Notes under the pieces: model-generated | Database searches by the model: none | Told to the model about the DNA's origin: nothing | The model's input: only the letters and a program-made list of their open reading frames with translations | Shown here: in pieces, positions 10,300 through 27,850 of the stretch | How the letters are laid out: each line of letters opens with the position of its first letter | Position numbering within the stretch: the stretch's first letter is position 1 | Assembly (NCBI GenBank): GCA_017459425.1 | Contig: JAFUCZ010000024.1 | Span: 9,672 to 41,671, forward strand | Reading direction: 5' to 3' | DNA: 32,000 nucleotides | Source: Bacilli bacterium | Lineage (GTDB): Bacteria > Bacillota_I > Bacilli_A > RF39 > UBA660 | Position numbers and translations under genes: made by a program

Positions 10300-10416
10300 T
10301 TATTTCACTTCCCTTTACGACTGCGATATTATATCACATTTTATTAGTTTATGTAAAGTTTTTTTATTTATCTTGAAACCATTAATTTTTTAATTTATAA
10401 TTAAATAGAGGTAATT

Positions 10417-11031
10417 ATGAAAAAAATAATATTAAGTTTAATTATATTTTTATTTGTGTTTAACGTGAGTGCAGAAGAAAAGGTAAGTGTTACTCTTAAA
10501 AGTTGTGTTGATGGAGATACAGCTAATTTTATTATGAAAAAGAAAGAGATAAAAGTGCGTTTTTTAGCAATTGATGCCCCGGAAATTAAACATGGTAGTA
10601 AAAAAGCTGATCCATATGGTGAAGAAGCAAAGTTTTATACTTGTTCTGAGCTTAAAAAAGCTGATAATATTTATCTTGAATTTGATGATAATAGTGATAA
10701 ATTAGATAGGTATGATAGATATTTAGCCTGGGTTTTTGTAGATGATGATTTGCTTCAATATAAAATTGTTAAAAAAGGGCTTGCTAAGGTGGCGTATTTA
10801 TATGATGATTATAAATATACGGATGTTTTAAAAAAAGCTGAAAATAAGGCTAAAATTAGCACTAAAGGTATATGGAGTAATAATAAATTAGAATTTGATT
10901 TCGATTTTATAAAAGAAAATTATATATATATAATTATTGTAGTATTATTTGTTTTATTAATATGTTTAATTAGTAAGAAAGCTAGAAAACTTATTAAGAA
11001 AAAAATTTATAAAAAAATTAAAAAGTACTAA
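10417..11031 (+). CDS. Thermonuclease (staphylococcal nuclease family), membrane-anchored/secreted
   Basis: N-terminal signal peptide. VDGDTANF...VRFLAIDAPE...YGEEA...DRYDRYLAWVF matches the SNase catalytic core. There is a C-terminal TM helix plus a basic tail. Confidence 0.8.
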   Translation: MKKIILSLIIFLFVFNVSAEEKVSVTLKSCVDGDTANFIMKKKEIKVRFLAIDAPEIKHGSKKADPYGEEAKFYTCSELKKADNIYLEFDDNSDKLDRYDRYLAWVFVDDDLLQYKIVKKGLAKVAYLYDDYKYTDVLKKAENKAKISTKGIWSNNKLEFDFDFIKENYIYIIIVVLFVLLICLISKKARKLIKKKIYKKIKKY

Positions 11032-11055
11032 TTTTGGTAATTAGTACTATTTTTT
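11024..11055 (+). terminator. Rho-independent terminator
   Basis: 10-bp stem agtactaatt/aattagtact with a 5-nt loop, followed by attttttat. The stop codon lies inside the stem. Confidence 0.55.
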
Positions 11056-11182
11056 ATACAATTTAATTAAATTTGTATATATAAAAATAGTAATCTGTTT
11101 TAATTTTTTTACAAATCGTTAAAATTAGTGTTTTGACATATTTTTTTTAATATATTAAATTCTTCTTGAAAGGAGATTTTGT

Positions 11183-12247
11183 ATGTTAAAGCTTAGAAAA
11201 AATTTAAATTTAAAAGAAGTTTATGACTATCCGCTTGATCCTACATATGTTAAGAAATTACTTAAAACATGTGAATTAACTGAAAATGACAAACTATCAA
11301 TATTAGGAGATTCTATGTTTAATACTATGTTTTTAAATAAACATGGATTAAAATACTCAGCTAAACTTTTTTCTTATTTCTTTAGAATTAGATATGAAGC
11401 ACTACTAAAAAAATTAAAATTTTTTAAAAATAATGTAGGTAAAATTAGAAATGGTTCTAGAAACTCTAGATGTGATTTGGTAGCCCAAATTGATGATTCT
11501 ATAATTAATTTAGAAGTAAATAACAACGATTCTGTTTATGTAATGCAAAGAAATATTGATTATGCATTTAGATTATATTCAGAAAGCTCTGTAAAAGTTA
11601 AAGCGGGATATGATTTTTCACAAATAATTCAAATTAATTTAAACAATTTTGCTTTTAAAGATACTAATGAAACTTATGAAATATATACTATCAATAATGG
11701 ATCTAAAATACTTACTTATAAGTTAATTATTATCAATATTTATGTTCCAAACATAATCAAAAAATGGTATAATGAGGGTGTAGAAGCTTTAAGTGAAATG
11801 GAAAGATACATCCTTGGACTTGTAGAAGAAGATACAACTAAAGCTAGTACTTTAGGAAAGGATATTGATATTATGGATGAATTTATTGGTGAAGCACTAT
11901 CGAAAAGTAGAAATGAAAGGCTAAGAAGATCATATGATAAAGAACTAGCCCTTTTAGATCAAGGTGATAGAAACGGATTTAAAAGGGGTATGATGAAAGG
12001 AATGGATAGAGGATTTCAAGAAGGAATTGAAAAGGGAATTGAAAAAGGATTTGAACAAGGTATTGAACAAGGTATTGAACAAGGTATTGAACAAGGTATT
12101 GAACAAGGAATCAAGCAAGGAATTAACCAAAGTAAATTTGAAATAGCACAAAAAATGATTGATAATAATGATAATATTGAATATATTTCATTTATTACTA
12201 ATTTATCAATCGATGATATTAAAAAAATAAAATCTAAAGTTAATTAA
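11183..12247 (+). CDS. Rpn-family / PD-(D/E)xK nuclease family transposase-like protein
   Basis: RCDLVAQIDDSIINLEVNNN fits a D...E-x-(N/K) PD-(D/E)xK core. The C-terminal GxEQG repeat block is followed by IAQKMI...ISFITNLSIDDIKKI, the arrangement typical of the Rpn/YhgA-like family. This is recalled family knowledge and was not searched. Confidence 0.6.
   Translation: MLKLRKNLNLKEVYDYPLDPTYVKKLLKTCELTENDKLSILGDSMFNTMFLNKHGLKYSAKLFSYFFRIRYEALLKKLKFFKNNVGKIRNGSRNSRCDLVAQIDDSIINLEVNNNDSVYVMQRNIDYAFRLYSESSVKVKAGYDFSQIIQINLNNFAFKDTNETYEIYTINNGSKILTYKLIIINIYVPNIIKKWYNEGVEALSEMERYILGLVEEDTTKASTLGKDIDIMDEFIGEALSKSRNERLRRSYDKELALLDQGDRNGFKRGMMKGMDRGFQEGIEKGIEKGFEQGIEQGIEQGIEQGIEQGIKQGINQSKFEIAQKMIDNNDNIEYISFITNLSIDDIKKIKSKVN
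12023..12130 (+). repeat. In-frame 12-nt tandem repeat (nine units, four perfect) encoding (G-I/F-E/K/N-Q/K)n
   Basis: Perfect ggtattgaacaa occurs four times at 12059-12106. It is flanked by degenerate units ggaattgaaaag, ggaattgaaaaa, ggatttgaacaa, ggaatcaagcaa and ggaattaaccaa. Confidence 0.9.
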
Positions 12248-14194: not shown

Positions 14195-16870
14195 TTATTT
14201 TTTTATAATTTCATTTAGTTTTTTGATTATTATTTCTTTTTCTCTTGAACCATTTGTTTTAAATCTAAGTAGTGGAATATCACACTTTTTTAAAATATTA
14301 TTTTTTATTTGGTCTCTTATTATTTGTTTCTTTTTATTATGAAAAAAATATCCATCTACTTCTATTGCAAGTACAGGCTTTTTATCAAATTTATTAAATA
14401 TTAGAAAATCTATATGTGAATTATGATTAATAAATTCAATTTCTCTTTCATTTAAAATAGTTTTATCTTTAACTATTTTTCTTAATGGATATACTTTATC
14501 TAAAACATCATATGTACTATATTCATCCATTTGTAGTATTTCTTTTATAGTATTATACATAATAGTTTCTGAATCAAATTTAGAAAAAATAGTATGTGCT
14601 TTTAAATATTGTTTTTTAGTATCTTCATTTACTTTGTATAGTAAATCAAATATTGAGTTTATTTTACTTTCTACTTCTTCAAATTTATTATATTTAATAT
14701 AACTTATTAAATTAGAAATATTAGAATTATTACTTGATTTATATTCATCTGGTGTAACTAAAAATAGTTTATTAATAGCTCTAGATACTGCTACATTAAT
14801 AGAATTAGGATTATCTAAAAATTTTGTTATATTGTTTGCTACTGTAGAAAAAATAATAGTATCTTTTTCTCTTCCTTGAAATCCATGAACTGTATCTATA
14901 GATACATTTGGGCAATTAATTTCACCTATTAGATAATTTTTTTGGGCTTTATATGGAGTTATAATTCCTACCCGATCTTTATTTATATCTATTTTTTCAT
15001 TTGGTATTAGTTCATCTATTATAATTTCTGCTTGTCTTAAATTATACCAACTATTATCTCTTTTTCTAGCGTGATTACCTTTTACTGATTTATATTGTTT
15101 AATTGGCTCATTATTATTACTTTCTGATAGTATTATTAATTCATTATTATAGAATTTTTTATTACAAAAATTTATTATTTTAGGATGACATCTATAATGT
15201 TCTCTTAAAATGACTATATTATTAACTGTTTTTTTAGTTAAATCAAGTAAACTATTTTTAGTGTAATTAAATTTTTCTTCTATATCATATTTATTAAATA
15301 TTTCATTAAAATCTATATTTTTATCAACTATGTTAGGTAGTTGCTTAGAATCTCCTACTATTATTACGTTTTTAGCCATGCTAAGTGCAGCAAATGAAGA
15401 TACTAGATCTGCTTGAGAAGATTCATCTATAATCATGTAATCAAACATAAAAGATTTATTAACACAATTTATTAATGAATATGTAGTACTAAGTATTACA
15501 GGGTAATCTTTTATTAATTCTTGTGTATTATAAATTGTTTTTTTATCATATATTTTTTTATTATTATAATTTTTATATACATAATCTTTAAATAATTTCA
15601 TAGAAATATCTGTATATGTTTTAAATAATTTTTCATAATTTAAATTCTTTATATAATCTTTTTTTTCTTGTACTTGTGTTTCTAATTCTTTTATTCTTTT
15701 TTCGTAATATGAATATTCTAAATAATTTAAAATATCTACTATTTTATTACTAGTATCAATTTTATATTTTATTTTTGATTTAATTTGTATTAATTTACTA
15801 AAATATTCTTTTTTGTTTTTTTGTTTATTTAAAAACATTAAAACTTCATGTAATTTTTTTGAATCATAATCAGGTAAATTAATTACTTTTATATTAGATA
15901 TATCAATACTTTTTTTAAAATAATTATATTCTGTTTTTAATTCATCTAATTCTTGATTTGCTGCAGCTATTTCATTTTTTATATTTAAATATGAATCTAT
16001 ATCACTATTCATTATATTTAAATTATTTTTTATTTTATTTATTTCTTCGTCATTTAATTTCCAATTATCAGGATATAATTCATTAGATTGATTATTAATA
16101 AAATCTTTAATATTACTAGATTTACCTAATTTCGCACATATAGAAGATAAAGATTGTTTTTTTAATTTTTCATATACGTTATCAGTGGCACTATTATTAT
16201 TAGATATAACAGCTACACTATAATTTGAAATAATACAATTAGATATTATATTTAAAATTGTTTGTGTTTTACCTGTACCAGGTTGTCCTTCTATTGCACT
16301 AACATAATTATTAAGTGCATTATTTAATGCTTTTTTTTGACTTAAATTAAAACTAAATGGAAATATATTAGTATCTATTTTAGTGCCTTTATCTTTAATA
16401 CCATTAACATAATACTTAATGACTGAATCTTCATTTATAAATTTTAATTTATCATATATCTTACTTAATACACTATTATCTTCATTATTTGATATATCTT
16501 TAATAGTTAAATAACTTGATATTTCATTTAAATAATTATAAACATTTCTTACATTTATATTAGATAGCAAATTACTTTTAATTGTAACTTCAGAATTATT
16601 ATATAATTTAGTAGTATTATTACTAAAAAATACTTTTATATAATTATCAAACTTTAATATTTTTTCTACATTAATTAAAGTATTATATGAAGTTGATATT
16701 ATAGAATCTTTTATGATTATAGGATATTCTTTTATTATTAAATTAGATTTATTATATGTATATATTTTATCACTATAATTAACACTTACTAAATTATCAT
16801 TAATATCAACTACATTTTTAGTTATATCTTTATCATTATTTATTACTAATATCTTTTCTTCATTTAACAT
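14195..16870 (-). CDS. Superfamily 1 (Upf1/DNA2-like, AAA_11/AAA_12-type) helicase with a C-terminal DUF2726-like PD-(D/E)xK nuclease-fold domain
   Basis: Walker A GQPGTGKTQT, motif II MIIDESSQ, then VGDSKQLPN, LREHYRCHPKIINF, TVHGFQGREKD and NVAVSRA (motif VI). The C-terminal HIDFLIFNKFDKKPVLAIEVDGYFFH...RDQIKNNILKKCDIPLLRF resembles the DUF2726/Vsr-like endonuclease fold. It is on the same strand as the DGR RT and 54 nt downstream of it. Confidence 0.85.
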   Translation of the reverse strand: MLNEEKILVINNDKDITKNVVDINDNLVSVNYSDKIYTYNKSNLIIKEYPIIIKDSIISTSYNTLINVEKILKFDNYIKVFFSNNTTKLYNNSEVTIKSNLLSNINVRNVYNYLNEISSYLTIKDISNNEDNSVLSKIYDKLKFINEDSVIKYYVNGIKDKGTKIDTNIFPFSFNLSQKKALNNALNNYVSAIEGQPGTGKTQTILNIISNCIISNYSVAVISNNNSATDNVYEKLKKQSLSSICAKLGKSSNIKDFINNQSNELYPDNWKLNDEEINKIKNNLNIMNSDIDSYLNIKNEIAAANQELDELKTEYNYFKKSIDISNIKVINLPDYDSKKLHEVLMFLNKQKNKKEYFSKLIQIKSKIKYKIDTSNKIVDILNYLEYSYYEKRIKELETQVQEKKDYIKNLNYEKLFKTYTDISMKLFKDYVYKNYNNKKIYDKKTIYNTQELIKDYPVILSTTYSLINCVNKSFMFDYMIIDESSQADLVSSFAALSMAKNVIIVGDSKQLPNIVDKNIDFNEIFNKYDIEEKFNYTKNSLLDLTKKTVNNIVILREHYRCHPKIINFCNKKFYNNELIILSESNNNEPIKQYKSVKGNHARKRDNSWYNLRQAEIIIDELIPNEKIDINKDRVGIITPYKAQKNYLIGEINCPNVSIDTVHGFQGREKDTIIFSTVANNITKFLDNPNSINVAVSRAINKLFLVTPDEYKSSNNSNISNLISYIKYNKFEEVESKINSIFDLLYKVNEDTKKQYLKAHTIFSKFDSETIMYNTIKEILQMDEYSTYDVLDKVYPLRKIVKDKTILNEREIEFINHNSHIDFLIFNKFDKKPVLAIEVDGYFFHNKKKQIIRDQIKNNILKKCDIPLLRFKTNGSREKEIIIKKLNEIIKK

Positions 16871-16924: not shown

Positions 16925-17992
16925 TTATAAATAACTATCTATAATTTTTTCTATTTTTTTCTTATTACATCTATATGAATAATAATAATTCATCATAGAT
17001 GAAAAATATGTTTCAAATTTTAATTTTTCATTTTTGTATAAATATATTTTCTTTTTTACATTTTTCTTCATATTCTTAACAGAACTTCTTTTAACAATCA
17101 TTATTGTTTTTTTATTTTGTATAAAAAATTTATAACCTAGAAATGTAAAACCATATTTAGAACTCGTAATAAATGTTTTATTTATACTTATATCCAATTT
17201 ATATTCATTATTTAGTTTATTAATTATTATTTCTTTGCATTTTTTTAAATATAATAAATCATCACTAAAAATTAAAAAATCATCCATATACCTTACATAG
17301 TGTTTTAATTTTAATGTATGAATTATATAGTGATCTAGTCTGGATAAATAATATATTGACAAGCATTGACTACTTAAATTACCAATTGGTAAGCCTTTGC
17401 CGTATTCATATAAAGGTACTTTTAAATTTTTATTATTTTTAAGGATTTTTTTTATATTTGAATTTATATAATCATAATTAGTACTATCAATTATTTTACA
17501 TACAAAATTATATTCACAATCACTTAAATCTGTTTTTAACATTGCCTTTAATATGTCATGATCTATCCTATAAAAATACTTACTTATATCTATTTTTAAA
17601 ACATAAAATATTTTATTTTTTCTTTTATAAAACTCTATATATTTTTTTACTAAATTTATGGCATAATCGGTACCTTTGCCTATACGTGTAGCAACATTTC
17701 TATCATCTAATTTTTTTTCTAATTTAGGTATTAGATAATTAGTAGTATAATAATGATTTATTATTTTGTCGTTAATACTTAATGACATAATAAGCCTAGG
17801 TTTTGGTTCATATATTAAAAAAATATTGTATTTATGAATAAGTGGCTCTATACCATTTAATACATCAACAATATATTTTAAATGCTCTGATTTATGCATT
17901 TCCAAATTAATTAATTTATTTTTATTTTTTACTGTCTTTTTTAATGTTTGTTCATAAAATTCAAGTACATCACGTATTGTTATTTTTTTCAT
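16925..17992 (-). CDS. Diversity-generating retroelement reverse transcriptase
   Basis: RT motifs are present: the motif 4 region LPIGNLSSQCLSIYYL (the (I/L)GxxxSQ signature that distinguishes DGR RTs), motif 5 YVRYMDDFLIFS (YxDD), and FTFLGYKF. The 355-aa size is typical of DGR RTs. It overlaps the avd-like gene by 23 nt, and the TR and VRs lie nearby. Confidence 0.9.
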   Translation of the reverse strand: MKKITIRDVLEFYEQTLKKTVKNKNKLINLEMHKSEHLKYIVDVLNGIEPLIHKYNIFLIYEPKPRLIMSLSINDKIINHYYTTNYLIPKLEKKLDDRNVATRIGKGTDYAINLVKKYIEFYKRKNKIFYVLKIDISKYFYRIDHDILKAMLKTDLSDCEYNFVCKIIDSTNYDYINSNIKKILKNNKNLKVPLYEYGKGLPIGNLSSQCLSIYYLSRLDHYIIHTLKLKHYVRYMDDFLIFSDDLLYLKKCKEIIINKLNNEYKLDISINKTFITSSKYGFTFLGYKFFIQNKKTIMIVKRSSVKNMKKNVKKKIYLYKNEKLKFETYFSSMMNYYYSYRCNKKKIEKIIDSYL

Positions 17993-18335
17993 ATACTATC
18001 CAACCCCTAACTTTTTTATTTAAATCTAATAAAAGTGCGGTTTTTTCATGAAAAATAGATTCAGTAATATATCCCTTTTTATATGATTCTTCAAGTAATA
18101 AATCAATCATACTAATTTTTGATAAAATTTTACTTTGATTTAAAATACGAATATCTTTAAATTTATTAAGTGGTATATAATTAGATTCATAAATAAGTTC
18201 TATTATCTCATAGGTTAATGTTTTTATTTTATCTTTAAGTATTATTTCCCTATTTGGAAATCTACATAAAATAGTATCTATTTCAAACAGGAATGTTTTA
18301 GCAATTACAATTATTTTAAACTTATTTTCTTTCAT
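17970..18335 (-). CDS. avd: Avd-like accessory variability determinant (four-helix-bundle protein)
   Basis: 121 aa and predicted all-helical. FPNREIILKDKIKTLTYEIIELIYESN and IDLLLEESYKKGYITESIFHEKTALLLDLNKKVRGWI fit the four-helix-bundle / 23S rRNA IVS protein family pattern. It is translationally coupled to the RT. Confidence 0.75.
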   Translation of the reverse strand: MKENKFKIIVIAKTFLFEIDTILCRFPNREIILKDKIKTLTYEIIELIYESNYIPLNKFKDIRILNQSKILSKISMIDLLLEESYKKGYITESIFHEKTALLLDLNKKVRGWIVYEKNNNT

Positions 18336-18672
18336 TTAAAAAATTATCTATTACATCAATTAAATCATTTAATTGATTAAAATTTGCTTTCATTATTTTT
18401 TCTTGTATTTGATTAATTTTTAAATCAAGAATTAATTTGTTTTTTGATTCTATTAAATAATTACTGTAATTATCGTCTTCAAAATGTTTTATTTCATCAT
18501 TTAATTTATAATCAATATGTAATTCGTCTAATTTTGATTTAACCTTGTCAATACTACTTAGTGGAAAACCAACTCTACTATCTTTTAGTTTATAATTAAA
18601 TAAATTATGTAATATTGTTGCGTCATCATCAAATACTGAATAAAAATTACCTGCTTTTCTAAAAACTATCAT
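18322..18672 (-). CDS. Small MutS domain-I-like DGR accessory protein (MSL-type)
   Basis: MIVFRKAGNFYSVFDDDATILHNLFNYKLKDSRVGFPLSSIDKVKSKLDELHIDYKL aligns by eye with the MutS mismatch-binding N-terminus (LLFYRMGDFYELFYDDA...L...LT.R...PMAGIP......YL.KL...G..V). It overlaps avd by 14 nt. Confidence 0.55.
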   Translation of the reverse strand: MIVFRKAGNFYSVFDDDATILHNLFNYKLKDSRVGFPLSSIDKVKSKLDELHIDYKLNDEIKHFEDDNYSNYLIESKNKLILDLKINQIQEKIMKANFNQLNDLIDVIDNFLNERK

Positions 18673-18896
18673 TAATAAACCTCACTTCATAAATATTAGT
18701 AAGGAGTAAATAACTCCTTACCATTACAACATACTACATTTTTACAAGATTATAGAATCGGTACGTATACCTATCGTCTTGTACTATCTTTAGGGTTACC
18801 CCTAGGACATGTGCTGTCTCCTACAATTATCATATTATTTGCGAGAAAATAATACCCGAATAAATATTTGACTACATTGTAAACTGAAATTGTAGC
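18673..18896 (-). ncRNA. Non-coding spacer 3' of the TR, probably part of the DGR RNA (Sp-like region)
   Basis: There is no ORF, and it is locally richer in G+C than its surroundings. Minus-strand hairpins are TAGGG-GTAA-CCCTA (18791-18804, GNRA-type loop), GGTA-TACG-TACC (18760-18771, UNCG-type loop) and gtaaggagt-tatt-tactccttac (18699-18721). Confidence 0.4.
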
Positions 18897-19010
18897 AGTC
18901 TACAGGGCGGACAGAACCGGCATTTAACGCATTGTTGTTATTGACGTTTCCTGTAGAGTTCACATTGAACACATTATTGGAATTTGAAGAATTCGCACGA
19001 GGCGAAAGGG
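18897..19010 (-). repeat. DGR template repeat (TR), 114 nt
   Basis: It is homologous to 19520-19633 and 21317-21430. All mismatches are at plus-strand T, which is A on the minus (coding/template) strand. In the target reading frame it is loaded with AAY Asn codons (...ANSSNSNNVFNVNSTGNVNNNNALNAGSVRPV). The 60-aa ORF at 18835-19017 in the track is this element, not a gene. Confidence 0.92.
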
Positions 19011-19040: not shown

Positions 19041-19355
19041 TTACCCTAACACACCTGCCCTAATTCTATCTAATATATCTATAACTATAAACTTATATAC
19101 GTACTCAGTATATCTATTTATATTGTTTTCATATGTTTTATCTATATTTAAATTATCTACTATAATATAATTAATACTTAATTTTTGAAATTTTTTTAAT
19201 ACTACAGTAATATCATCATTATATTTTTTAATATAATTTAAAATAATTTTATCTATACCAAAACATTTATACCCAAATTTATTTTTACTAGTTTTAAATA
19301 GCAATACATAATTAGGATATATTTTTTTTAAAAACCAATATCTATTATTGTACAT
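19041..19355 (-). CDS. Hypothetical small protein between the DGR targets and the TR, possibly a second MutS-domain-I-like accessory
   Basis: 104 aa. YWFLKKIYPNYVLLFKTSKNKFGYKCFGIDKIILNYI loosely parallels the MutS N-terminus (YL.LK...P..LLFYR.GDFYE.F..DA......L), and SINYIIVDNL parallels the VAI.EQ region. The similarity is weak and seen by eye only. Confidence 0.4.
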   Translation of the reverse strand: MYNNRYWFLKKIYPNYVLLFKTSKNKFGYKCFGIDKIILNYIKKYNDDITVVLKKFQKLSINYIIVDNLNIDKTYENNINRYTEYVYKFIVIDILDRIRAGVLG

Positions 19356-19386: not shown

Positions 19387-19414
19387 CGTCCAGTCTTGAA
19401 TACAAGACCGGACG
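19387..19414 (-). promoter_or_regulatory. 12-bp hairpin downstream of DGR target 2
   Basis: The minus strand reads cgtccggtcttg-tatt-caagactggacg. All 12 positions pair on the minus strand, one of them as G-U. The plus-strand version has an A-C mismatch, so the structure is strand-specific. A second 6-bp hairpin (gtagaa/ttctac) follows at 19369-19386. No T-run follows either hairpin. Confidence 0.4.
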
Positions 19415-19442: not shown

Positions 19443-20840
19443 TTATTCTGTGTAATTTAGAACAAATGGTTTTGATTGTGTTCCATCACCAGAGGTGATT
19501 GTAACACCTGATTTTAAGTAGACTACAGGGCGGACAGAACCGGCATCCAACGCATGGTCGCCAGTGACGTAGCCTGTAGAGCGCACAATGAACACAATAT
19601 AGGAATAAGAAGAAGTCGCACGAGGCGAAAGGGTCCATGTCCACATACTTGTATTTAATAACCAATCATTATTCTTACAGTCTGTATATGTATTTTGCCA
19701 ATTTGGTATACTTGAATCTGATACGTATCCTACAGTATATGATAAACATGCATCTCTATCATGTGTACTTCCACCACTTGTCGCATATGCATAATCACTT
19801 GGATATATTAGTCCTACTTTACCTGTCCAACGCGTTGTTCTATTTACTGTATCACTACAATGTGTTGCATTTGAACATTGCTTACCTGTACTACTTGATC
19901 GCTCCCAACTATATAGTAGTGACGCTGTTATTCTTCCATCCCAGATATTTGCACTTGGTGTATCTAATGAGCCTAAGTACCATGTTGCATTATCTATCAT
20001 ATTTTTACTTGCTGTATCGCTCAATCCTGTATTTGTAAAATCACAGTTTGCTGTATTATAATTTCCATATGTATAACATTTGCCACTTTCTGCATTCCAA
20101 TACAAACTATTATTTACTTCGATTGTATCATAATTTGACGCGCTGTTATCTCCACAGTTAACTATTGAATTTGCTGAATCTAAAGTTGAACCTGCAATAC
20201 ATCTTAAATCTTCGTTCTCTTCATATCCTGGATTTAATAATTTCATTAAATCTGCTCCATCATAATCAGTTCCATCAGTTAGTGTTGATTCACCCCATTG
20301 GTTTACACCATATCCTCTATTAACATCTACCGCTGATGTATCAAATGAATAATTTCCAATTGGGCTTTGAACAAGTTTTAGTCTTCCATCAAATACTCCT
20401 ATTATTCTCCATACTTGATCATTAAATCTTACATAGTTATCTGGATTACTTCCTATAAACCTTAATTCATTTTCGTGATCTGTTGTTGATATTCCCTCAC
20501 CCTCTGTATTTAATGCTTTTATATATGATTCTGGTGTTTTCGGATTTGTACAACTATATTCACCATTTGTTCCATTAATTCTTACATATCCGCTAGGACA
20601 ACCTACATTAACTTCACAGAATGTTGCTTTTGTATATAATTCATCTAATGCAGTTTGTACATCTTCTACATCATTTCCACTCGAATCTTTAAAGCCGGAA
20701 GAGCTATTATCATATCCAACGTTATCACTTTGGTAAAGAATCGTAGCACCATAGACAGTTGTACTTGCTACAATTATTCCAATTATTATTCCATAAAATA
20801 ATTTTTTGTTATTATTAATATTATTTATTATTTTCTTCAT
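19443..20840 (-). CDS. DGR target protein 2: membrane-anchored/secreted protein with a C-terminal variable-region domain
   Basis: N-terminal hydrophobic anchor (LFYGIIIGIIVASTTVYG). VR1 encodes ...WTLSPRATSSYSYIVFIVRSTGYVTGDHALDAGSVRPVVYL about 25 residues from the C-terminus. The W.L(R)SP...G.VRP(A/V) module resembles C-type-lectin-fold/DUF6273-like ligand-binding domains used by DGR targets. An AGGAGGAAATAATT-ATG RBS follows 12 nt after the stop of target 1. Confidence 0.85.
   Translation of the reverse strand: MKKIINNINNNKKLFYGIIIGIIVASTTVYGATILYQSDNVGYDNSSSGFKDSSGNDVEDVQTALDELYTKATFCEVNVGCPSGYVRINGTNGEYSCTNPKTPESYIKALNTEGEGISTTDHENELRFIGSNPDNYVRFNDQVWRIIGVFDGRLKLVQSPIGNYSFDTSAVDVNRGYGVNQWGESTLTDGTDYDGADLMKLLNPGYEENEDLRCIAGSTLDSANSIVNCGDNSASNYDTIEVNNSLYWNAESGKCYTYGNYNTANCDFTNTGLSDTASKNMIDNATWYLGSLDTPSANIWDGRITASLLYSWERSSSTGKQCSNATHCSDTVNRTTRWTGKVGLIYPSDYAYATSGGSTHDRDACLSYTVGYVSDSSIPNWQNTYTDCKNNDWLLNTSMWTWTLSPRATSSYSYIVFIVRSTGYVTGDHALDAGSVRPVVYLKSGVTITSGDGTQSKPFVLNYTE
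19457..20534 (-). repeat. Copy A of the ~1.08-kb duplicated VR-bearing module
   Basis: Collinear with 21254-22334 at an offset of 1797-1800 nt, with one 3-nt indel. The encoded proteins are roughly 95 percent identical outside the VR by eye. Confidence 0.9.
19520..19633 (-). repeat. DGR variable repeat VR1
   Basis: I count 17 differences from the TR across 18901-19010, plus one at 18899. All are at TR adenines on the coding strand. The flanking invariant blocks are ccctttcgcctcgtgcg (5') and ccggttctgtccgccctgtag (3'). Confidence 0.92.
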
Positions 20841-20852
20841 AATTATTTCCTC

Positions 20853-23800
20853 CTAATTTAGCATCTCGTACAACTTGTCTATCATACATTGTACATTACT
20901 ACATCCAAGTGTACTATTAATATGTTCTATATTTTCTGCCATTACTCTTGTCCATTTAGCATATAATACTCCACTGTTATCTGTAAAAATAGTAGCAGAC
21001 ACTTGTGAAGACAATTTACCACTAGAATCAATTACTTTGGTTCCAGTTCCATTCTTGCCTGTATAATATCCACCAAATGCATATCCTTTTTTTGTTGGTA
21101 TTGTTATTCCATTACTACTTGTTGTAATTTGTGTAGTAGCTTCACTATTTAAATAATATCCTGTATTATATTTTTCATATATACTTGTTGTTCCTGTTGT
21201 AGTAGCATTTCTATTATCTAATTTTACTGAATATGTATCTGATGTTGGATCAGTTAAAACAAATGGTTTTGATTGTGTTCCATCACCAGAGGTGATTGTA
21301 ACACCTGATTTTAAGTAGACTACAGGGCGGACAGAACCGGCAAAGAACGCATCGGTGCTAATGACGTATCCTGTAGAGTGCACATAGAACACACTATTGG
21401 AATCTGAAGAAATCGCACGAGGCGAAAGGGTCCATGTCCACACGCCTGTATTTAATAACCAATCATTATTCTTACAGTCTGTATATGTATTTTGCCAATT
21501 TGGTATACTTGAATCTGATACATATCCTACAGTATATGATAAACATGCATCTCTATCATGTGTACTTCCTCCACTTGTTGCATATGCATAATCACTTGGA
21601 TATATTAGTCCTACTTTTCCTGTCCAACGCGTTGTTCTATTTACTGTATCACTACAATGTGCATTATTTTGTGTACATTGCTTACCTGTACTACTTGATC
21701 GCTCCCAACTATATAGTAGTGACGCTGTTACTCTTCCATCCCAGATATTTGCACTTGGTGTATCTAATGAGCCTAAGTACCATGTTGCATTATCTATCAT
21801 ATTTTTACTTGCTGTATCGCTCAATCCTGTATTTGTAAAATCACAGTTTGCTGTATTATAGTTTCCATATGTATAACATTTGCCACTTCCTGCATTCCAA
21901 TACAAACTATTATTTACTGAAACTGTATCATAATTTGACGCACTGTTATCTCCGCAGTTAACTATTGAATTTGTACTATCTAAAGTTGAACCTGCAATAC
22001 ATCTTAAATCTTGATTACTCTCATATCCTGGATTTAATAATTTCATTAAATCTGCTCCATCATAATCAGTTCCATCAGTTAGTGTTGATTCACCCCATTG
22101 GTTTACACCATACCCTTTATTTACATCTACCGCTGATGTATCAAATGAGTAACTACCTATTGGACTTTGAACAAGTTTTAATCTTCCATCAAATACTCCT
22201 ATTATTCTCCATATTTGATTATTAAATCTTACATAGTTATCTGGATTACTTCCTATAAATCTTAATTCATTTTCGTGATCTGTTGTTGATATTCCCTCAC
22301 CCTCTGTATTTAATATTTTAATTACAGATTCAGGATCGTTACCAACATATGTCCAATTTGCAGTATAACTTCTATTACCTGTTGAACCTGTAGGTATAGT
22401 TACATTTTTGCTTGGAGTATTTCCATTAGACCCAGTCCATCCATCAAATAAATAACCTGTTTTTTTTGGATTATTTAATGTGATTGCACTGCTTTCTTTT
22501 GTGTAACTTGTTGGATTTGTAGCACTTCCACCATTTAATGTGTATTCAATTGTATATGATATTGGTTCACATACTCCATATAACGCTACATCCGTTATTG
22601 GTGTTATTGTTTCGCCACTTGTATGTTGAATAGTTGTACCATTTTCATTTGCTGTCCATCCACAAGTATATCCTGTTTTTTCTATTGTTGGAAGTGTTAT
22701 ATTTCCACTACCACTAAATCTAGCAAATAAAGTAATATCTTCATCATGTATCCAATTTGATTCTTCATCTGTATATTCGTTTATACTTGGAGTTAATACT
22801 GGTTTATTTGTATTATCTAGCATTAGATCTCCACCATTTTGTAATGTATACCAACCATTAAATGAATATGAAGTAGTTAAGTTTTCATTACTACTTACTG
22901 TAGCGCCATTTGATTTTCTTGAATTTGATAATTCAAATCCACTTACTGTGTATTCTTTTTGTGGTACTACTATTTCTTCTGGATTAATATCTGCTGCATC
23001 GTATGTTACTTCAACACTAGCAGTTGGGTTATTTGTTGCTCCATTTTTATTTAAAGTAATAGTATAGGTATTTGCTATCCAATGTGCTGTTATAGTTTCT
23101 GATTTTTTAGCTAAAGTTTCAGGAGTAACCTTTACATCATTTGACGTATACCAGCCATCAAATGTGTATCCAGTTTTACTAACTGTAGGTAATTCACCAT
23201 AAGAAGTATTATATTCTATTCTTTTTGTAATTACTTCTTCTCCATTATTAGGATCAAATGTTATAGTGTAAATATCTGTTGTGTATATTGCATATAGTGT
23301 ATAAATTGGATATTCATTTAAATCTACTGTTAATTTATCTCCTTTACGATATTTAATTCTTGTACCATTTTGTTCATCTGTCCAACCACTAAATGTATAT
23401 CCTTCTTTTACTGGTTCTTCTAGTACGTTATTAACTAAGTTTAAAGTTAAATCTTCACCCTCATATTTTATTTGATCTGTTACACTGCTTCCGCCATTTT
23501 CTTGATAAGTAATATAGTATACTTTTCTAAAATCAAATACATTTGTTACATTTATTGTAGATGTACTTGGATTTGTTGTAGTATAAGTTACATATAAATC
23601 TAGTGTAGATTTTTTTTCAATTACATCTTTGAAATTAAATATAGTACCATTTGCATATTTTATAGTTGTAATTAATCCATTATCGTTTGAAGTTGTAGTC
23701 ATGTTATATATAGTTTGATCGAAATCACCATTGTTTGCAATAGTTACTTTATATGTTATAGATGAATTACTATTAGGTAAAACAAACCCACTAGTTATTT

Positions 23801-24005
23801 TATCAACATTATATTCGCTTTCATATTTTATTTCTGCACCATTTAATGTACTACCACTTAAAACTATTCCATCTACTCTAATATCAGATATAGGTCTGAT
23901 TTTTACTTCTGATGTGATAGACAAAGAAGTAGAAAGTGCTGAATATGCTACTGTTGTAAGCATTACAAAAATAACGCTTAAAAAAATCATAATTTTCTTC
24001 TGCAT
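20853..24005 (-). CDS. DGR target protein 1: large secreted surface protein with Listeria-Bacteroides (Flg_new-type) repeats and an internal variable-region domain
   Basis: Signal/anchor MQKKIMIFLSVIFVMLTTVAYSAL. There are at least six G(Y)xFxGW(Y/T)...G repeat units (GYTFSGWTDEQNGT, GYTFDGWYTSND, SFNGWYTLQNGG, GYTCGWTANENGT, GYLFDGWTGSNGN, GYAFGGYYTGKNGTG). The VR2-encoded segment is WTLSPRAISSDSNSVFYVHSTGYVISTDAFFAGSVRPVVYL. Confidence 0.85.
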   Translation of the reverse strand: MQKKIMIFLSVIFVMLTTVAYSALSTSLSITSEVKIRPISDIRVDGIVLSGSTLNGAEIKYESEYNVDKITSGFVLPNSNSSITYKVTIANNGDFDQTIYNMTTTSNDNGLITTIKYANGTIFNFKDVIEKKSTLDLYVTYTTTNPSTSTINVTNVFDFRKVYYITYQENGGSSVTDQIKYEGEDLTLNLVNNVLEEPVKEGYTFSGWTDEQNGTRIKYRKGDKLTVDLNEYPIYTLYAIYTTDIYTITFDPNNGEEVITKRIEYNTSYGELPTVSKTGYTFDGWYTSNDVKVTPETLAKKSETITAHWIANTYTITLNKNGATNNPTASVEVTYDAADINPEEIVVPQKEYTVSGFELSNSRKSNGATVSSNENLTTSYSFNGWYTLQNGGDLMLDNTNKPVLTPSINEYTDEESNWIHDEDITLFARFSGSGNITLPTIEKTGYTCGWTANENGTTIQHTSGETITPITDVALYGVCEPISYTIEYTLNGGSATNPTSYTKESSAITLNNPKKTGYLFDGWTGSNGNTPSKNVTIPTGSTGNRSYTANWTYVGNDPESVIKILNTEGEGISTTDHENELRFIGSNPDNYVRFNNQIWRIIGVFDGRLKLVQSPIGSYSFDTSAVDVNKGYGVNQWGESTLTDGTDYDGADLMKLLNPGYESNQDLRCIAGSTLDSTNSIVNCGDNSASNYDTVSVNNSLYWNAGSGKCYTYGNYNTANCDFTNTGLSDTASKNMIDNATWYLGSLDTPSANIWDGRVTASLLYSWERSSSTGKQCTQNNAHCSDTVNRTTRWTGKVGLIYPSDYAYATSGGSTHDRDACLSYTVGYVSDSSIPNWQNTYTDCKNNDWLLNTGVWTWTLSPRAISSDSNSVFYVHSTGYVISTDAFFAGSVRPVVYLKSGVTITSGDGTQSKPFVLTDPTSDTYSVKLDNRNATTTGTTSIYEKYNTGYYLNSEATTQITTSSNGITIPTKKGYAFGGYYTGKNGTGTKVIDSSGKLSSQVSATIFTDNSGVLYAKWTRVMAENIEHINSTLGCSNVQCMIDKLYEMLN
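21254..22334 (-). repeat. Copy B of the ~1.08-kb duplicated VR-bearing module
   Basis: See copy A. It includes VR2 and the identical downstream block ...ggtgattgtaacacctgattttaagtagac. Confidence 0.9.
21317..21430 (-). repeat. DGR variable repeat VR2 (internal to target 1)
   Basis: I count 13 differences from the TR across 18901-19010, plus one at 18899. All are at TR adenines. VR1 and VR2 differ from each other at many of the same positions. Confidence 0.92.
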
Positions 24006-24229: not shown

Positions 24230-25228
24230 TTAATCCATTTCTTTTCTAGTTACTTTATATTCATAATTTTGAGTATCCATAATTACAAATTTAGATTCAT
24301 TTTCATTTACTTTTACATAAATTATAGGTTTTTCTAAATTATTTCTTACATCCAATAATTCTTTAAAACTATTAATAGATACAACAGGTGCATTACTATC
24401 AATAAATGAATTATTAGATTCTGTAATATATGAATCATTTTCTCTTAAAAGTTTTTTAATATATCTTTCATATTTACTTTCTTTACTAAGTCTACTTTTA
24501 ATTTTAAGTGCTAGTATTACTAGAGAAACAAAACCTAAAGCAGCAAGCATAATAGATATACCAAACATTACTTTATTAAGTGGTGATTCACTTGTTCTTA
24601 AAGAGTATGGTTCATTACTAGAAATATCAGAGCTTTTAGAAATATTAATCATTTGTCTAGAAAGAGGTATTTCTACAGTCATTTTCTTACTACCTACTAT
24701 ATCGTTTTCTTTACTCTCATACATTAAATCATAATCGATAACTAAATTACAATTAGCGCTTATTCCATAATCACTTTTAAATTTATTTGCTAAATTATTA
24801 TATTTAGTATAATCAATTTTTATTTGATCAGATACATCTATATTTTCACTAGTATTAGCATCTTGTTTTAATATATCATTTTCAGAATAAATTACTTTAT
24901 CGTTATTTTCTGTATCAACTATTTTTATATCAGCAACAATTTTTTTATTTATATCAAAAGTATCTTTAATGTCATAAGTTGCCTTATAATTGAAATTTAA
25001 ATCAATATAATCTACTATACTAGAAATATATTGCATTCCTTCATCTAAATAATCCCTATTGTAATAAGTTTTATCATTTAAATATACTTTGTATTTAACC
25101 CCACCATTTTCTTTAAAATCAACCACTGTTGATATTTGTTGCTTTGATTGCATAAAGAAATAAAAACTTAATATTCCTAATATTACTGTCAAAACAACCA
25201 TTGCCAACTCGCTTTTACTCTTTTCCAT
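24230..25228 (-). CDS. Bitopic membrane protein associated with the SipW-type peptidase (possibly DUF5305-like)
   Basis: 332 aa with an N-terminal TM helix (LAMVVLTVILGILSFYFFM), an extracytoplasmic segment of about 200 aa, a second TM helix (VMFGISIMLAALGFVSLVILAL) and a cytoplasmic tail. It lies 12 nt downstream of the signal peptidase gene. The family assignment is recollection only. Confidence 0.5.
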   Translation of the reverse strand: MEKSKSELAMVVLTVILGILSFYFFMQSKQQISTVVDFKENGGVKYKVYLNDKTYYNRDYLDEGMQYISSIVDYIDLNFNYKATYDIKDTFDINKKIVADIKIVDTENNDKVIYSENDILKQDANTSENIDVSDQIKIDYTKYNNLANKFKSDYGISANCNLVIDYDLMYESKENDIVGSKKMTVEIPLSRQMINISKSSDISSNEPYSLRTSESPLNKVMFGISIMLAALGFVSLVILALKIKSRLSKESKYERYIKKLLRENDSYITESNNSFIDSNAPVVSINSFKELLDVRNNLEKPIIYVKVNENESKFVIMDTQNYEYKVTRKEMD

Positions 25229-25240
25229 TTTTATCCTCCT

Positions 25241-26365
25241 TTAAAACATTTCATTTAACCAAATACTTGGCAAACCTACTTTATCAACGATAAATATTAC
25301 TTTTCCAAGAACATCATCGTCCCCAACAACACCAGCATCTACCTGGTCATTGTTATCACCTTTTGTAGAATAAAATCTATAATTTTGTCTTTCATACACT
25401 TTATAAATTCTATGTGATATCAATTTATTTTCATGTCTGAATACAATTATGTCGCCAACTTCTAATTTGGATTTTTCAGTATCACGTAGTTTTTTTAGAA
25501 TTACAACATCACCTTTTTCAAAAGTACCTAACATTGAATTAGATCCAATAACTAAAGATTGATATTTAAAAAAGCCTGAATTTAAACCCACTAAAGAAAG
25601 TAATACAACTAAACAAATACCAAAAACAATGTTATTTCTGTGTCTGTTTTTTGGTTTTTCAAGTTTTTTCATTCTATTATTAAGTAACATAAAAGAAATA
25701 AATGTTGGTAATACTATCATAAATACTGATGAAACATAAGTACCCATATTAGGTACAAATGGAACAATATAAATATACAATTCCATTATTAATCTATAAA
25801 TAATTCCATTATAAAAATCACTCTTCATTGCAAATATTGTCATCAGTACATTTCTACTAATTCCATCTATTACTACAATTGCTATAAATTTATATAATTG
25901 TTCTTTATCAGCTAAATTATAATTAGTGAATCCAATACTAATATCTAGCATTACAAACACTAAAAAACTCATAAAAATAACTAATTTATTGTTATCTGAT
26001 TTTTTGATAAATTGATATCTTAAAACTTCACTTGCGATTATAACTGTCGATACCGGAATAATGTTTTTAACAAAGTTTACTACCGACCAAGAATAAATTG
26101 TACGTGCGAATGAAATAAAAAGACCAAGTAAGTAAATAAATAAGAAATAAATAATTAAATAAATGAGTAAACTTTTTAAAATTTCTTTATGATTCGAAGG
26201 TTTTTTTATATCTATTCCTATAGCAAAATAAACTATAGCAAAAGATACACATAAAAAGATAAGATATTTATCATGAGTGAACAATGCAGGTTGCAAGAAG
26301 CTTATCAATATTACTACAAGCATTAATATTTCAATAATTAATAACTTTTTTACCCCACTTTTCAT
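25241..26365 (-). CDS. sipW: SipW-like (archaeal/ER-type) signal peptidase I fused to a large polytopic N-terminal membrane domain
   Basis: The C-terminal ~120 aa (GSNSMLGTFEKGDVVIL...VGDIIVF...ISHRIYKV...STKGDNNDQVD) parallel B. subtilis SipW blocks (SGSMEP.F.TGD / VGDVITF / THRI / TKGDNN...D). The first ~250 aa are multiple hydrophobic helices that ordinary SipW lacks. Confidence 0.75.
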   Translation of the reverse strand: MKSGVKKLLIIEILMLVVILISFLQPALFTHDKYLIFLCVSFAIVYFAIGIDIKKPSNHKEILKSLLIYLIIYFLFIYLLGLFISFARTIYSWSVVNFVKNIIPVSTVIIASEVLRYQFIKKSDNNKLVIFMSFLVFVMLDISIGFTNYNLADKEQLYKFIAIVVIDGISRNVLMTIFAMKSDFYNGIIYRLIMELYIYIVPFVPNMGTYVSSVFMIVLPTFISFMLLNNRMKKLEKPKNRHRNNIVFGICLVVLLSLVGLNSGFFKYQSLVIGSNSMLGTFEKGDVVILKKLRDTEKSKLEVGDIIVFRHENKLISHRIYKVYERQNYRFYSTKGDNNDQVDAGVVGDDDVLGKVIFIVDKVGLPSIWLNEMF

Positions 26366-26400
26366 AACTCACCTTCTCACTCTTATCTACTCTAAAAATA

Positions 26401-26429
26401 ATTATATTAAATTATTTTTATTTTGTCAA
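26401..26429 (-). promoter_or_regulatory. Consensus sigma-A promoter upstream of the signal peptidase gene
   Basis: The minus strand reads TTGACA, a 17-nt spacer, then TATAAT. Confidence 0.55.
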
Positions 26430-26452
26430 ATACAATAAATTGATTAAAAAAA

Positions 26453-26472
26453 ACATAAGTAAATACTTATGT
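26453..26472 (-). terminator. Rho-independent terminator after the 26472-27092 gene
   Basis: The minus strand reads acataagt-attt-acttatgt followed by tttttttt. Confidence 0.6.
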
Positions 26473-27092
26473 TAATTATTATAATCTTGTCCATATATTA
26501 GAACAGCTGTTATATTATTAAAATGCACACTATGACTTGGTAATACTTGCGGTTCATCTCTTCTTACATATTCAATAGTAACCATTAATTCACGTGTTCC
26601 ATTATTTTTTTCTAATTTATCGCCTATTTTTATATCTGTACCATCTGCATATGTGAATTTAATTTCAATGTCATTTATTAGATTTTTTCTTGAAATATCA
26701 TCTAATGTTTCAGCAGAATTCCAAATTATATTTCCTACTTTTATATCAGTTTTACCTGTTAATATAGCATTAATATCACCTTTATTTTTTACATTCCATT
26801 TATATATCACTTTATCGCCTGGTGCTTTTAGTAATGCGTGTGGCAATGTAATTATTGTTGAATTTGGATTGAATGTTAAATAATCTTGTTCAACACTTGC
26901 ATACTCTAATATTGTAATAGATGAACCACTATCTAATAGATTAAAACTGACATCCCAATTATTTGAATTATTTTCAGATAGCATATTATTACTAATAGCA
27001 GGTTTTCTAGTAAAGGTAGCAAAAATAATTGTTACTATTACTACACCAACTATAAGTATTGATAATAATGTATTTTTTTCTTTCTTCGACAT
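26472..27092 (-). CDS. Secreted beta-rich protein, paralog of 27178-27819 (putative minor fibre/matrix subunit, TasA/camelysin-like context)
   Basis: N-terminal anchor/signal (LLSILIVGVVIVTIIFATF). It is colinear with its neighbour: LPHALLKAPGDKVIYKWNVKNKGDINAILTGKTDIKVG...NDIEIKFTYADGT...LMVTIEY versus LPMVTLKAPGDKVEYVWAVENTGDINAVLTGKTDITLG...NDIDVKFTYADGT...LKVTVEY. Confidence 0.55.
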   Translation of the reverse strand: MSKKEKNTLLSILIVGVVIVTIIFATFTRKPAISNNMLSENNSNNWDVSFNLLDSGSSITILEYASVEQDYLTFNPNSTIITLPHALLKAPGDKVIYKWNVKNKGDINAILTGKTDIKVGNIIWNSAETLDDISRKNLINDIEIKFTYADGTDIKIGDKLEKNNGTRELMVTIEYVRRDEPQVLPSHSVHFNNITAVLIYGQDYNN

Positions 27093-27114
27093 AACACACC
27101 TCTATCATAAATTA

Positions 27115-27143
27115 ATGATATTAAATTATTTTAAATTTGTCAA
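27115..27143 (-). promoter_or_regulatory. Sigma-A-type promoter of the 26472-27092 gene
   Basis: The minus strand reads TTGACA, a 17-nt spacer, then TATCAT. Confidence 0.5.
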
Positions 27144-27154
27144 TAAAAAGAAAA

Positions 27155-27178
27155 AAACTTAAGTATAAACTTAAGTTT
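27155..27178 (-). terminator. Rho-independent terminator after the 27178-27819 gene
   Basis: 10-bp stem aaacttaagt/acttaagttt, followed by a T-run on the minus strand. Confidence 0.6.
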
Positions 27179-27819
27179 TATGCATTGTCTTGTCCGTAAG
27201 TTAATGCTGCTGTGATGTTACTAAATGTTACATCTTTACTTGGTAAAGTTTGAGTTTCACCAGTTTTCTTGTATTCAACTGTAACTTTTAAAAGTGCTTT
27301 ACCAGTTGTTTTAGCTAACTTATCAGTATTTGCTGTAATAGCAGTTCCATCAGCATAAGTGAATTTAACATCAATATCGTTAATTAATGCTGCTTTACCA
27401 TTAGCATCTAAAGTTTCATCATTTGCCCAAGTTGCAGCACCTAAAGTGATATCAGTTTTACCAGTTAAAACTGCATTAATATCACCAGTATTTTCAACAG
27501 CCCAAACATATTCAACTTTATCACCAGGTGCTTTTAAAGTAACCATTGGTAAAGTTACGATTGTTGAGTCAGAAGTAAATGATAATGCTGCATCTTGTGC
27601 CATAGTAGCATATCCAGTTGTAGTAATAGGTTGGTAAGTACTTCCATCTTTAGTAGTATCTAAAGCTCTAAAACGTACCTTCCAGCTTGATGCAATATTT
27701 TGCACTGTAGCACTACCATTAATATTTAATGTTTGAGTAAGTGCTGCATAAGCAACTGTCATTGAAACAAGTCCTACAACTAATACTCCTAGTAAAACAT
27801 TCTTTGTCTTTTCGTTCAC
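27178..27819 (-). CDS. Secreted beta-rich protein, putative major subunit of a SipW-dependent fibre/matrix (TasA/camelysin-like context)
   Basis: The signal-like N-terminus ...LLGVLVVGLVSMTVAYAALTQTLNINGSATV precedes an Ala/Thr-rich mature part. Its codon usage is visibly different (less AT-biased) from its neighbours. It has its own promoter and terminator. I place the start at the GTG at 27819 (MNEKTKN...) because AAAGGAG lies 8 nt upstream and inside the track's 27837 start. Confidence 0.55.
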   Translation of the reverse strand: MNEKTKNVLLGVLVVGLVSMTVAYAALTQTLNINGSATVQNIASSWKVRFRALDTTKDGSTYQPITTTGYATMAQDAALSFTSDSTIVTLPMVTLKAPGDKVEYVWAVENTGDINAVLTGKTDITLGAATWANDETLDANGKAALINDIDVKFTYADGTAITANTDKLAKTTGKALLKVTVEYKKTGETQTLPSKDVTFSNITAALTYGQDNA

Positions 27820-27850
27820 AATTATTACTCCTTTCATATTTTACAATTTA

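Follow-up and report, generated by a model that had tools for sequence, protein, structure and literature searches.

How does a diversity-generating retroelement (DGR) come to serve a second target gene, and can a variable repeat (VR) that lies well inside an open reading frame (ORF) still be a valid target? Both questions are raised by a DGR in a 32,000-nucleotide stretch of contig JAFUCZ010000024.1 (hereafter the window), which has a GC content of 25.5% and matches a metagenome-assembled genome (MAG) annotated as 'Bacilli bacterium'. The element is ordered, on the minus strand, as a long stalk target, a short membrane-anchored target, a 104-residue ORF, a template repeat (TR), a MutS_I-like (MSL) ORF, an Avd-like ORF, and a reverse transcriptase (RT) gene; all genes, repeats, and hairpins of the window described below lie on that strand. 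In this DGR a duplicated module is common to both VR-bearing targets, which face a single TR. Our overall explanation, which we hold at a probability of about 0.75, is that a domain was copied in frame into the neighbouring stalk gene, which is now the second target.

The long target gene (20853–24005) encodes 1050 residues arranged as a signal peptide, repeats of the Flg_new/InlB-B type (Pfam Flg_new at 5e-35, together with Flg_new_2), the VR-bearing module, one more Flg_new-type repeat, and a conserved tail. The short target gene (19443–20840) encodes 465 residues, with an N-terminal membrane-anchor helix, a DVQTALDELY motif (found in 22 homologues), a Cys-rich linker, and its own copy of the module. 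These copies occupy residues 558–917 of the long protein (21254–22334), in the linker between Flg_new repeats, and residues 103–461 of the short protein (19457–20534); aligned as nucleotides and as protein, they are collinear over 359 codons and contain eight Cys each. Local nucleotide alignment pairs 22322–21254 with 20522–19457 at ~94% DNA identity, interrupted by one 3-nt indel (QCTQNNAHCSD versus QCS-NATHCSD) and one compensated 1-nt shift. At the protein level, 329 of 359 residues are identical (91.6%), with 302/320 outside the VR and 27/39 inside it. Comparison of the long with the short module outside the VR gives a synonymous divergence (dS) of 0.13, a nonsynonymous divergence (dN) of 0.037, and a ratio (ω) of 0.27, and both copies are under purifying selection; inside the VR, ω is ~3. 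An initial description of this DNA made without database searches (the sequence-only reading) had placed the near-identical, collinear modules at exactly these coordinates, had noted the 3-nt indel as the sole one, and had located the strongest divergence inside the VRs. Alignment bears out all three statements and adds the compensated shift.

The TR (18897–19010) spans 114 nt and contains 31 adenines and 12 in-frame AAY codons. When the repeats are aligned, VR1 in the short gene (19520–19633) differs from the TR by 18 A-to-N changes and VR2 in the long gene (21317–21430) by 14, and neither shows a non-A mismatch: the non-A positions of the TR are identical in VR1 and in VR2, at 83/83 each. 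The proposal that one TR faces two VR-bearing targets with a duplicated module is thus upheld by the alignment; that the TR currently services both displays is unproven. Eleven sites are mutated in both VRs and carry the same base at 4/11, which is about the level of chance, so that at least one full rewrite separates VR1 from VR2. Both VRs end in GCCGGTTCTGTCCGCCC followed by GTAGTCTAC, and the TR ends in GTAGACTGC. The difference between GTAGTCTAC and GTAGACTGC reads as the usual distinction between an initiation of mutagenic homing (IMH) element and its TR counterpart (IMH*), here with a GC-rich start to the IMH.

The two VRs are placed differently within their genes. From the end of VR1 to the stop codon there are 24 codons, and past VR2 the gene reads on for 153 codons, uninterrupted by a stop or frameshift. 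The post-module extension of the long gene (20853–21253) consists of a linker, a Flg_new-type repeat, GYAFGGYYTGKNG, which falls within those 153 codons, and a tail, RVMAENIEH...NVQCMIDKLYEMLN, that runs to the stop. Because this tail is conserved in seven relatives, it is genuine coding sequence. A VR close to the stop of the short gene, and about 150 further residues with another repeat and a distinct tail after VR2, had both been noted, and both were recovered here; the long gene, with substantial coding sequence past its VR in the same ORF, therefore has an internal VR. VR2 is internal at the level of the gene only; within its own lectin-like domain it remains C-terminal.

The copied segment begins with the module's first residue, falls four codons short of the end of the short gene, and takes in 60 nt downstream of the VR. 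It includes an imperfect hairpin of 12 bp, GTGTTACAATCACC-TCT-GGTGATGGAACAC, that lies within coding sequence 17 nt past the IMH, at 21275–21304 downstream of VR2 and, with identical sequence, at 19478–19507 downstream of VR1. The hairpin was recognized from its inverted repeat, its fold, and its covariation, the last assessed in a set of seven relatives with DGR-type VR ends. (Contigs compared with the window, whether related or from the same locus, are given L-numbers, and homologous proteins P-numbers.) An RT follows in five of the seven, and none is seen within the contig in L018 and L019. Across the set, standard pairs fill 97.6% of pair cells; one position occurs as AT, TA, CG, GC, and GU by way of third-position changes in Thr and Asp/Glu codons, and a second switches from CG to TA. 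Column shuffles reached the observed score in 2 of 500 trials, slid registers pair at 33–53%, and DNA-fold z-scores range from −2.4 to −3.2, compared with −0.75 in a paralogue without a nearby RT. In three paralogues without a nearby RT, the AT-rich codons usual in this genome specify the same I-T-x-G-D and G-S-V-R-P-V-V-Y residues, and the inverted repeat was not found in these three; the ATC, ACC, and GTC codons used in the DGR-linked genes account for 5%, 2.7%, and 2% of their codon families in the window. These patterns point to nucleotide-level selection within the ORF at the hairpin site. By analogy, the embedded hairpin would act like the target hairpin of the BPP-1 element, which follows the VR by 4–34 bp and has a GC-rich stem of 7–10 bp and a GRNA loop (PMC3240598); a GC-rich inverted repeat downstream of the IMH occurs in ~34% of DGRs. 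Because the copy took the IMH and the hairpin with it, both within coding sequence, an internal VR can stay a valid target.

Several paralogues and a further hairpin deserve mention beside these signals. The two tandem short-type paralogues of L007 (459 and 449 residues; 8587–11350) use AT-rich codons in the region equivalent to the VR and have a canonical terminator. The contig continues for a further 3 kb, in which no RT appears, and these genes served as unlinked controls. Another paralogue, P0046, has no RT within 10 kb. In the window, a distal GC-rich hairpin stands after the short gene (19387–19414), with a 12-bp stem, a 4-nt loop, and no T-tract, situated just ahead of the ribosome-binding site of the 104-residue ORF. 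Equivalents of different sequence follow the short target in L005, L006, and L021 (twice in L021). This hairpin was considered as the DGR target hairpin, which would then be missing at VR2, and was dropped in that role, both for its distance of >100 nt from the VR, against the published 4–34 bp, and in favor of the better-placed covarying hairpin inside the module. It might serve in processing or attenuation, or it might mark a boundary of the DGR RNA.

The direction in which the module was copied can be read from the relatives. In L005 and L006, a stalk gene, a short target, small ORFs, and the RT follow one another in that order, with a single VR that resides in the short gene; their stalk proteins (633 and 754 residues) align to residues 1–554 and 972–1049 of the long protein and are without the module. 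The tail W-x-RVMAENIEH...C.D.QC.IDELYYMLY ends the stalk genes of L005, L006, L007, L017, L018, and L019, and in all six a stalk gene with this tail sits immediately upstream of a short-type target. A short-type target with the module lies beside a stalk without it in L005, L006, L017, L018, and L019, and L007 has a module-less stalk beside short-type genes. The short-type architecture has many homologues at 54–78% identity; the combination of stalk, module, and tail was found only in the 90% cluster to which the long protein itself belongs. As for the searches, one made with the last 205 residues of the long protein returned seven module fragments, missed the protein's own cluster, and is uninformative on absence, and an exhaustive search of representatives was swamped by giant Flg_new proteins. 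The insertion junction in the stalk gene reads ...YTANWTYVGND / PES...PFVL / TDPTSDTYSVKLD..., with the module between the slashes. As judged from relatives that keep the gene pair with stalk proteins lacking the module, the short gene was the donor and the stalk gene the recipient. In other members of the family, the module is found in tandem pairs, twice in P0146, at the N-terminus of P0234, at the C-terminus of the giant proteins P0169 and P0185, and ahead of sortase-like anchors; on the strength of these many positions, shuffling of the domain is common in the family.

The history that we favor starts from a pair of surface proteins, the ancestral unit that relatives keep. One partner was a secreted stalk protein with Flg_new repeats and the conserved, Cys-containing tail at its end, and the other a membrane-anchored protein with a C-terminal, Cys-rich, C-type-lectin-like module of ~360 residues bearing a single VR. 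A copy of the module was then placed in frame into the stalk gene, in a linker that joins two of its Flg_new repeats, bringing with it the coding-embedded IMH and hairpin, which is to say everything known to be needed for retrohoming. The stalk protein would thereby have become a second target of the same TR and RT in trans, one with an internal VR, and the VR face would be exposed on the cell by both proteins. We consider it probable that VR2 is competent and currently used as a target: its IMH and hairpin are intact, both copies are under purifying selection, and it shows zero non-A mismatches in 83 positions against ~5% divergence in the rest of the module.

Two alternatives bear on this history. 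The window alone cannot tell the direction of copying, and the sequence-only reading had accordingly allowed for duplication of the module into either gene. Its duplication stands; the direction that it left open is settled by the relatives as short to long. The reverse, in which the short gene arose when the module was duplicated and excised out of the long gene, is very improbable in view of the module-less stalks that stand beside short-type targets in the nearest relatives, of the many homologues of the short type, and of the stalk–module–tail form having been found in a single cluster only. A more serious alternative concerns VR2 itself, and several observations count in its favor or against our reading. 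The VR2 sequence is the same in all seven contigs that carry it, the window, L001, L002, L013, L014, and L015 included. The distal GC-rich hairpin that relatives also have behind the short gene was not copied and is missing after VR2, and the embedded hairpin is shorter and less GC-rich than that of BPP-1, with a 3-nt loop that is not GRNA (PMC3240598) and a covariation signal drawn from seven related sequences only. The Avd and MSL assignments both fall under their curated cutoffs. Finally, the 85 nt past the VR, beyond the reach of overwriting by the TR, are also identical between the copies, so that the clean match of VR2 could reflect a scaffold or local constraint, or a young tract, and not repeated homing. 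VR2 might then be a frozen relic, with VR1 alone diversified and the VR1/VR2 differences arising from the rewriting of VR1, which would agree with published reasoning that C-terminal placement frees cis elements from coding constraint (PMC8144416). We regard such a relic as unlikely, though it is the most credible of the alternatives. Against it stand the perfect agreement of VR2 with the TR at non-A positions in an otherwise diverged module and the intact rare-codon IMH and covarying hairpin; furthermore, the compared strains are near-clonal, their ~19 kb of flank showing 0 differences, so that an unchanged VR2 across them says little. Population variants of the VR were sought in two scans of JGI metagenomes, using a degenerate VR pattern in one scan and the exact IMH in the other, and 0 matches were returned.

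The other two alternatives concern whether the module copies, and the mosaics of them seen in other assemblies, are real. Metagenome assemblies do mishandle this repeat, and the reference-MAG contigs of four relatives found by an RT-based locus search (L008–L011) end 1.2–1.8 kb upstream of the RT, roughly where the TR and targets would lie, with no targets visible, which suggests that assemblies commonly break at such DGR targets. An assembly artefact as the source of the second copy is nevertheless extremely improbable, the least likely of all the alternatives. Each copy has unique junctions, both are in frame and under purifying selection, and the two-copy layout recurs in six further contigs from other ENA assemblies, all of which show the same 16 copy-specific differences in the first 210 nt of the module; these fixed differences hold across two naming schemes and no fewer than five samples. 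Between the window copies, identity runs on for 129 nt at most, less than the k of 141 suggested by k141_ contig names (a MEGAHIT-style prefix), and two ENA contigs named in this way (L001 and L002) match the window near-exactly and keep the copies distinct. (The sole difference between the window and L001 over 21.4 kb is a 24-nt indel at window positions 12085–12108.) The check for a duplicated-read artefact that had been suggested beforehand thus spoke for a real duplication. Four same-locus assemblies, L013–L016, were reached via protein clusters and present a different picture within the modules, where 67 positions tell the short-gene type from the long-gene type. Their copies (L013 11685–14546, L014 5429–8290, L015 8520–11387, and L016 357–1425) are identical from module nt ~303 to 1062, including a VR that has the VR2 sequence also in the short gene, and are mosaics with block-wise swaps, the middle block being of the short-gene type in both copies in two assemblies and of the long-gene type in both in the other two. 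L013 differs from the window at 47 positions within the modules and at 0 in ~19 kb outside them, and chimeric versions of both targets are present in protein databases (P0129–P0133). Our first reading of these mosaics was gene conversion, by which ongoing exchange homogenizes or shuffles the modules and the mosaics are real recombinant alleles; it was downgraded once the switch points were seen to match a k-mer threshold. All of them fall in the five identical runs of ≥56 nt (129, 92, 85, 75, and 56) and none in runs of ≤54 nt, and all switched blocks are shorter than ~210 nt. A de Bruijn assembler run at k=55, by removing bulges and then walking the repeat twice, would leave such a footprint. 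The mosaic copies are therefore better explained by assembler bulge collapse. A caveat to this explanation is that MEGAHIT unitigs could not hold two identical 855-nt copies and that the 'scaffold' records are only presumed, from their naming, to come from SPIRE. The SPIRE paper names MEGAHIT as the assembler. Within the window pair itself, conversion tracts were sought and set aside: the clustering test was not significant after adjacent changes were merged, the resulting 22 difference events being spaced as at random (P ~0.6). Together with a dS of 0.13 in the window, this speaks against the earlier suggestion that gene conversion keeps the modules homogeneous, and we find ongoing conversion doubtful. 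The locus also cautions that short-read metagenome assemblies can silently swap one VR for its paralogue.

The module has no sequence match in Pfam, NCBIfam, or the PDB and was placed by structure comparison alone. An AlphaFold2 (AF2) model of the short protein, built with 100 homologues, has a mean predicted local distance difference test (pLDDT) score of 91, exceeds 95 across the module, and shows a helix at residues 12–37; in the context of the long gene, the module is modelled at pLDDT >90, and the flanking repeats poorly. The best PDB match by Foldseek is the IgA peptidase of Thomasclavelia ramosa (E 3e-7), whose N-terminal domain is annotated as DUF6273 (EMBO J, PMC12402451), and the best viral matches are phage DUF6273 proteins (4e-7). 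Matches to the C-terminal domain of Legionella Lcl and to many C-type lectins are weak (E ≥0.2). The window proteins do not match the Pfam model of DUF6273 (PF19789) even at E values up to 10, and one family member, P0064, matches it at 1e-7. Judged from the models, the module would be a distant, unannotated relative of the DUF6273 lectin-like class and not a member of it; DGR targets built on domains of that class have been described before (PMC10743442). The tail of the long protein is modelled as two terminal helices at pLDDT ~70. This stalk tail (…C.D.QC.IDELYYMLY; 20856–20945) resembles the juxtamembrane segment of the short target (…DV.DVQTALDELYTKA; 20610–20740, residues 35–75), and hhalign aligns the two over 14 columns (P 4.7e-4, probability 33%), which is a weak match. 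The likeness may represent a shared oligomerisation or docking motif that links both proteins.

The remaining components of the DGR follow downstream of the targets. The RT (16925–17992, 355 residues) matches RVT_1 at 4e-18 and PHROG 1423 at 1e-64, and its IGNLSSQ sequence conforms to the (I/V/L)GxxxSQ motif that defines DGR RTs (PMC3521204). Between RT and TR lie the Avd-like ORF (17970–18335, 121 residues), which matches PHROG 3206, 'Avd protein of DGR', at 3e-5 and NF033474 weakly (17 bits versus a cutoff of 80), and the MSL-type ORF (18322–18672, 116 residues), which scores 20.3 bits against Pfam MutS_I versus a cutoff of 20.6. Past the TR and before the MSL-like ORF comes a terminator-like hairpin of 11 pairs followed by a T-rich tail (18697–18723), at the place of the spacer structure in DGR RNAs. 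The 104-residue ORF between the short target and the TR (19041–19355) keeps its position in relatives, with ORFs of 94–105 residues in L005, L017, and L021, and has a sequence-level homologue of 148 residues in L019; it has no family match in Pfam, NCBIfam, or PHROGs. The notion that it might be a second MSL was ruled out, BLASTP finding no similarity to the 116-residue MSL-like ORF, and it is a candidate for an undescribed DGR accessory gene.

The DGR of this uncultured rumen/gut Bacilli bacterium is chromosomal, as its neighbours are sporulation and cell-wall genes; profile scans and inspection of its neighbourhood in the window found no phage genes around it. Directly downstream of the RT and co-oriented with it is an 891-residue superfamily 1 (SF1) helicase (AAA_11/AAA_12) fused to DUF2726 and a restriction-endonuclease-like domain (14195–16870). 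At the corresponding position L005, L006, and L021 have no such gene, so the helicase is probably unrelated to the DGR and is perhaps a defence gene. Upstream of the long target, 24230–27837 encodes a DUF5305 protein, a signal peptidase I of SipW/archaeal type fused to a polytopic N-terminal region (TIGR02228, 7e-21), and two secreted paralogues of 206 and 219 residues. In relatives, likewise, a SipW-like peptidase or a DUF5305 protein, with small secreted proteins, adjoins the stalk/target pair (L007 5641–8520, L017 4245–6988, and L021 166–2545). This recurrent gene content suggests that the DGR targets are coupled to an operon of the TasA/SipW style, for secretion or fibre formation.

If the favored history of in-frame copying is right, the locus is a dated natural case of a DGR gaining its second target by domain insertion and not by whole-gene duplication. 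It has been argued that VRs are C-terminal because the cis signals of retrohoming need an intergenic place (PMC8144416); the rare-codon IMH and covarying hairpin within the ORF qualify that argument, the constraint being one that can be satisfied within coding sequence. This is of use for engineering DGR targets at internal protein positions and for target-finding software that expects C-terminal VRs. With its cis signals encoded within the ORF, the module would also be portable. A far-reaching reading, which is a long shot, takes it for a self-contained, DGR-ready cassette that would render hypervariable in trans any surface protein receiving it in frame; in the same reading the mosaics would be real alleles, and frequent gene conversion between the two cassettes, possibly stimulated by homing intermediates, would add a second layer of shuffling to adenine mutagenesis.

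Internal VRs, multi-target DGRs, DUF6273-type lectin targets off the C-terminus, and cassettes with both MSL and Avd have all been published. What is new here is the direction of copying, a domain insertion into a neighbouring gene, and the coding-embedded signals on the target side. Multi-target DGRs arisen by duplication make up ~13–15% of surveyed elements (PMC3521204; Wu et al. 2018, PMC5758913) and, like the present one, combine one RT and TR with adjacent targets and A-only VR differences. Those cases involve whole paralogous genes, whereas here a domain only was put into a non-paralogous neighbour; the surveyed paralogues share 41–72% protein identity, and the present copies, at 94% DNA identity, are far closer. 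Internal VRs have been reported for 9/34 Ig1 targets, 9/10 Ig2 targets, one CLec2 target, and one CLec1 gene with three VRs (Wu et al. 2018, PMC5758913). These targets resemble the long gene in having coding sequence past the VR, so that the IMH must overlap coding sequence. They are mostly of Ig type, in contrast to the lectin type here, whose origin can be dated against relatives and for which a covarying, coding-embedded hairpin is documented.

The tentaclins offer a further parallel. These phage DGRs have two targets, in one of which the VR belongs to an N-terminal, lectin-like DUF6273 domain with Ig-like domains behind it (PMC10743442), and they share with the present locus two target topologies on one TR and a DUF6273-like domain that lies off the C-terminus and is followed by beta-rich repeats. 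The tentaclins differ in being phage tail proteins with Fn3/Ig domains and distantly related targets; the present element is chromosomal and its modules are near-identical, the one in the long protein being central and flanked by Flg_new repeats. With BPP-1 (Guo et al. 2011, PMC3240598) the locus shares a GC-rich IMH and, if the analogy holds, an inverted repeat that follows by a few to tens of nucleotides and is conserved in structure and variable in sequence. The stem here is imperfect and less GC-rich, with a loop of 3–6 nt and no GRNA, and is placed wholly within an ORF. In gene content the element is like architecture D (Wu et al. 2018), with MutS_I-like and Avd-like ORFs between TR and RT; a Legionella DGR also has an MSL (Wu et al. 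2018). To architecture D the present locus adds the conserved 104-residue ORF between target and TR.

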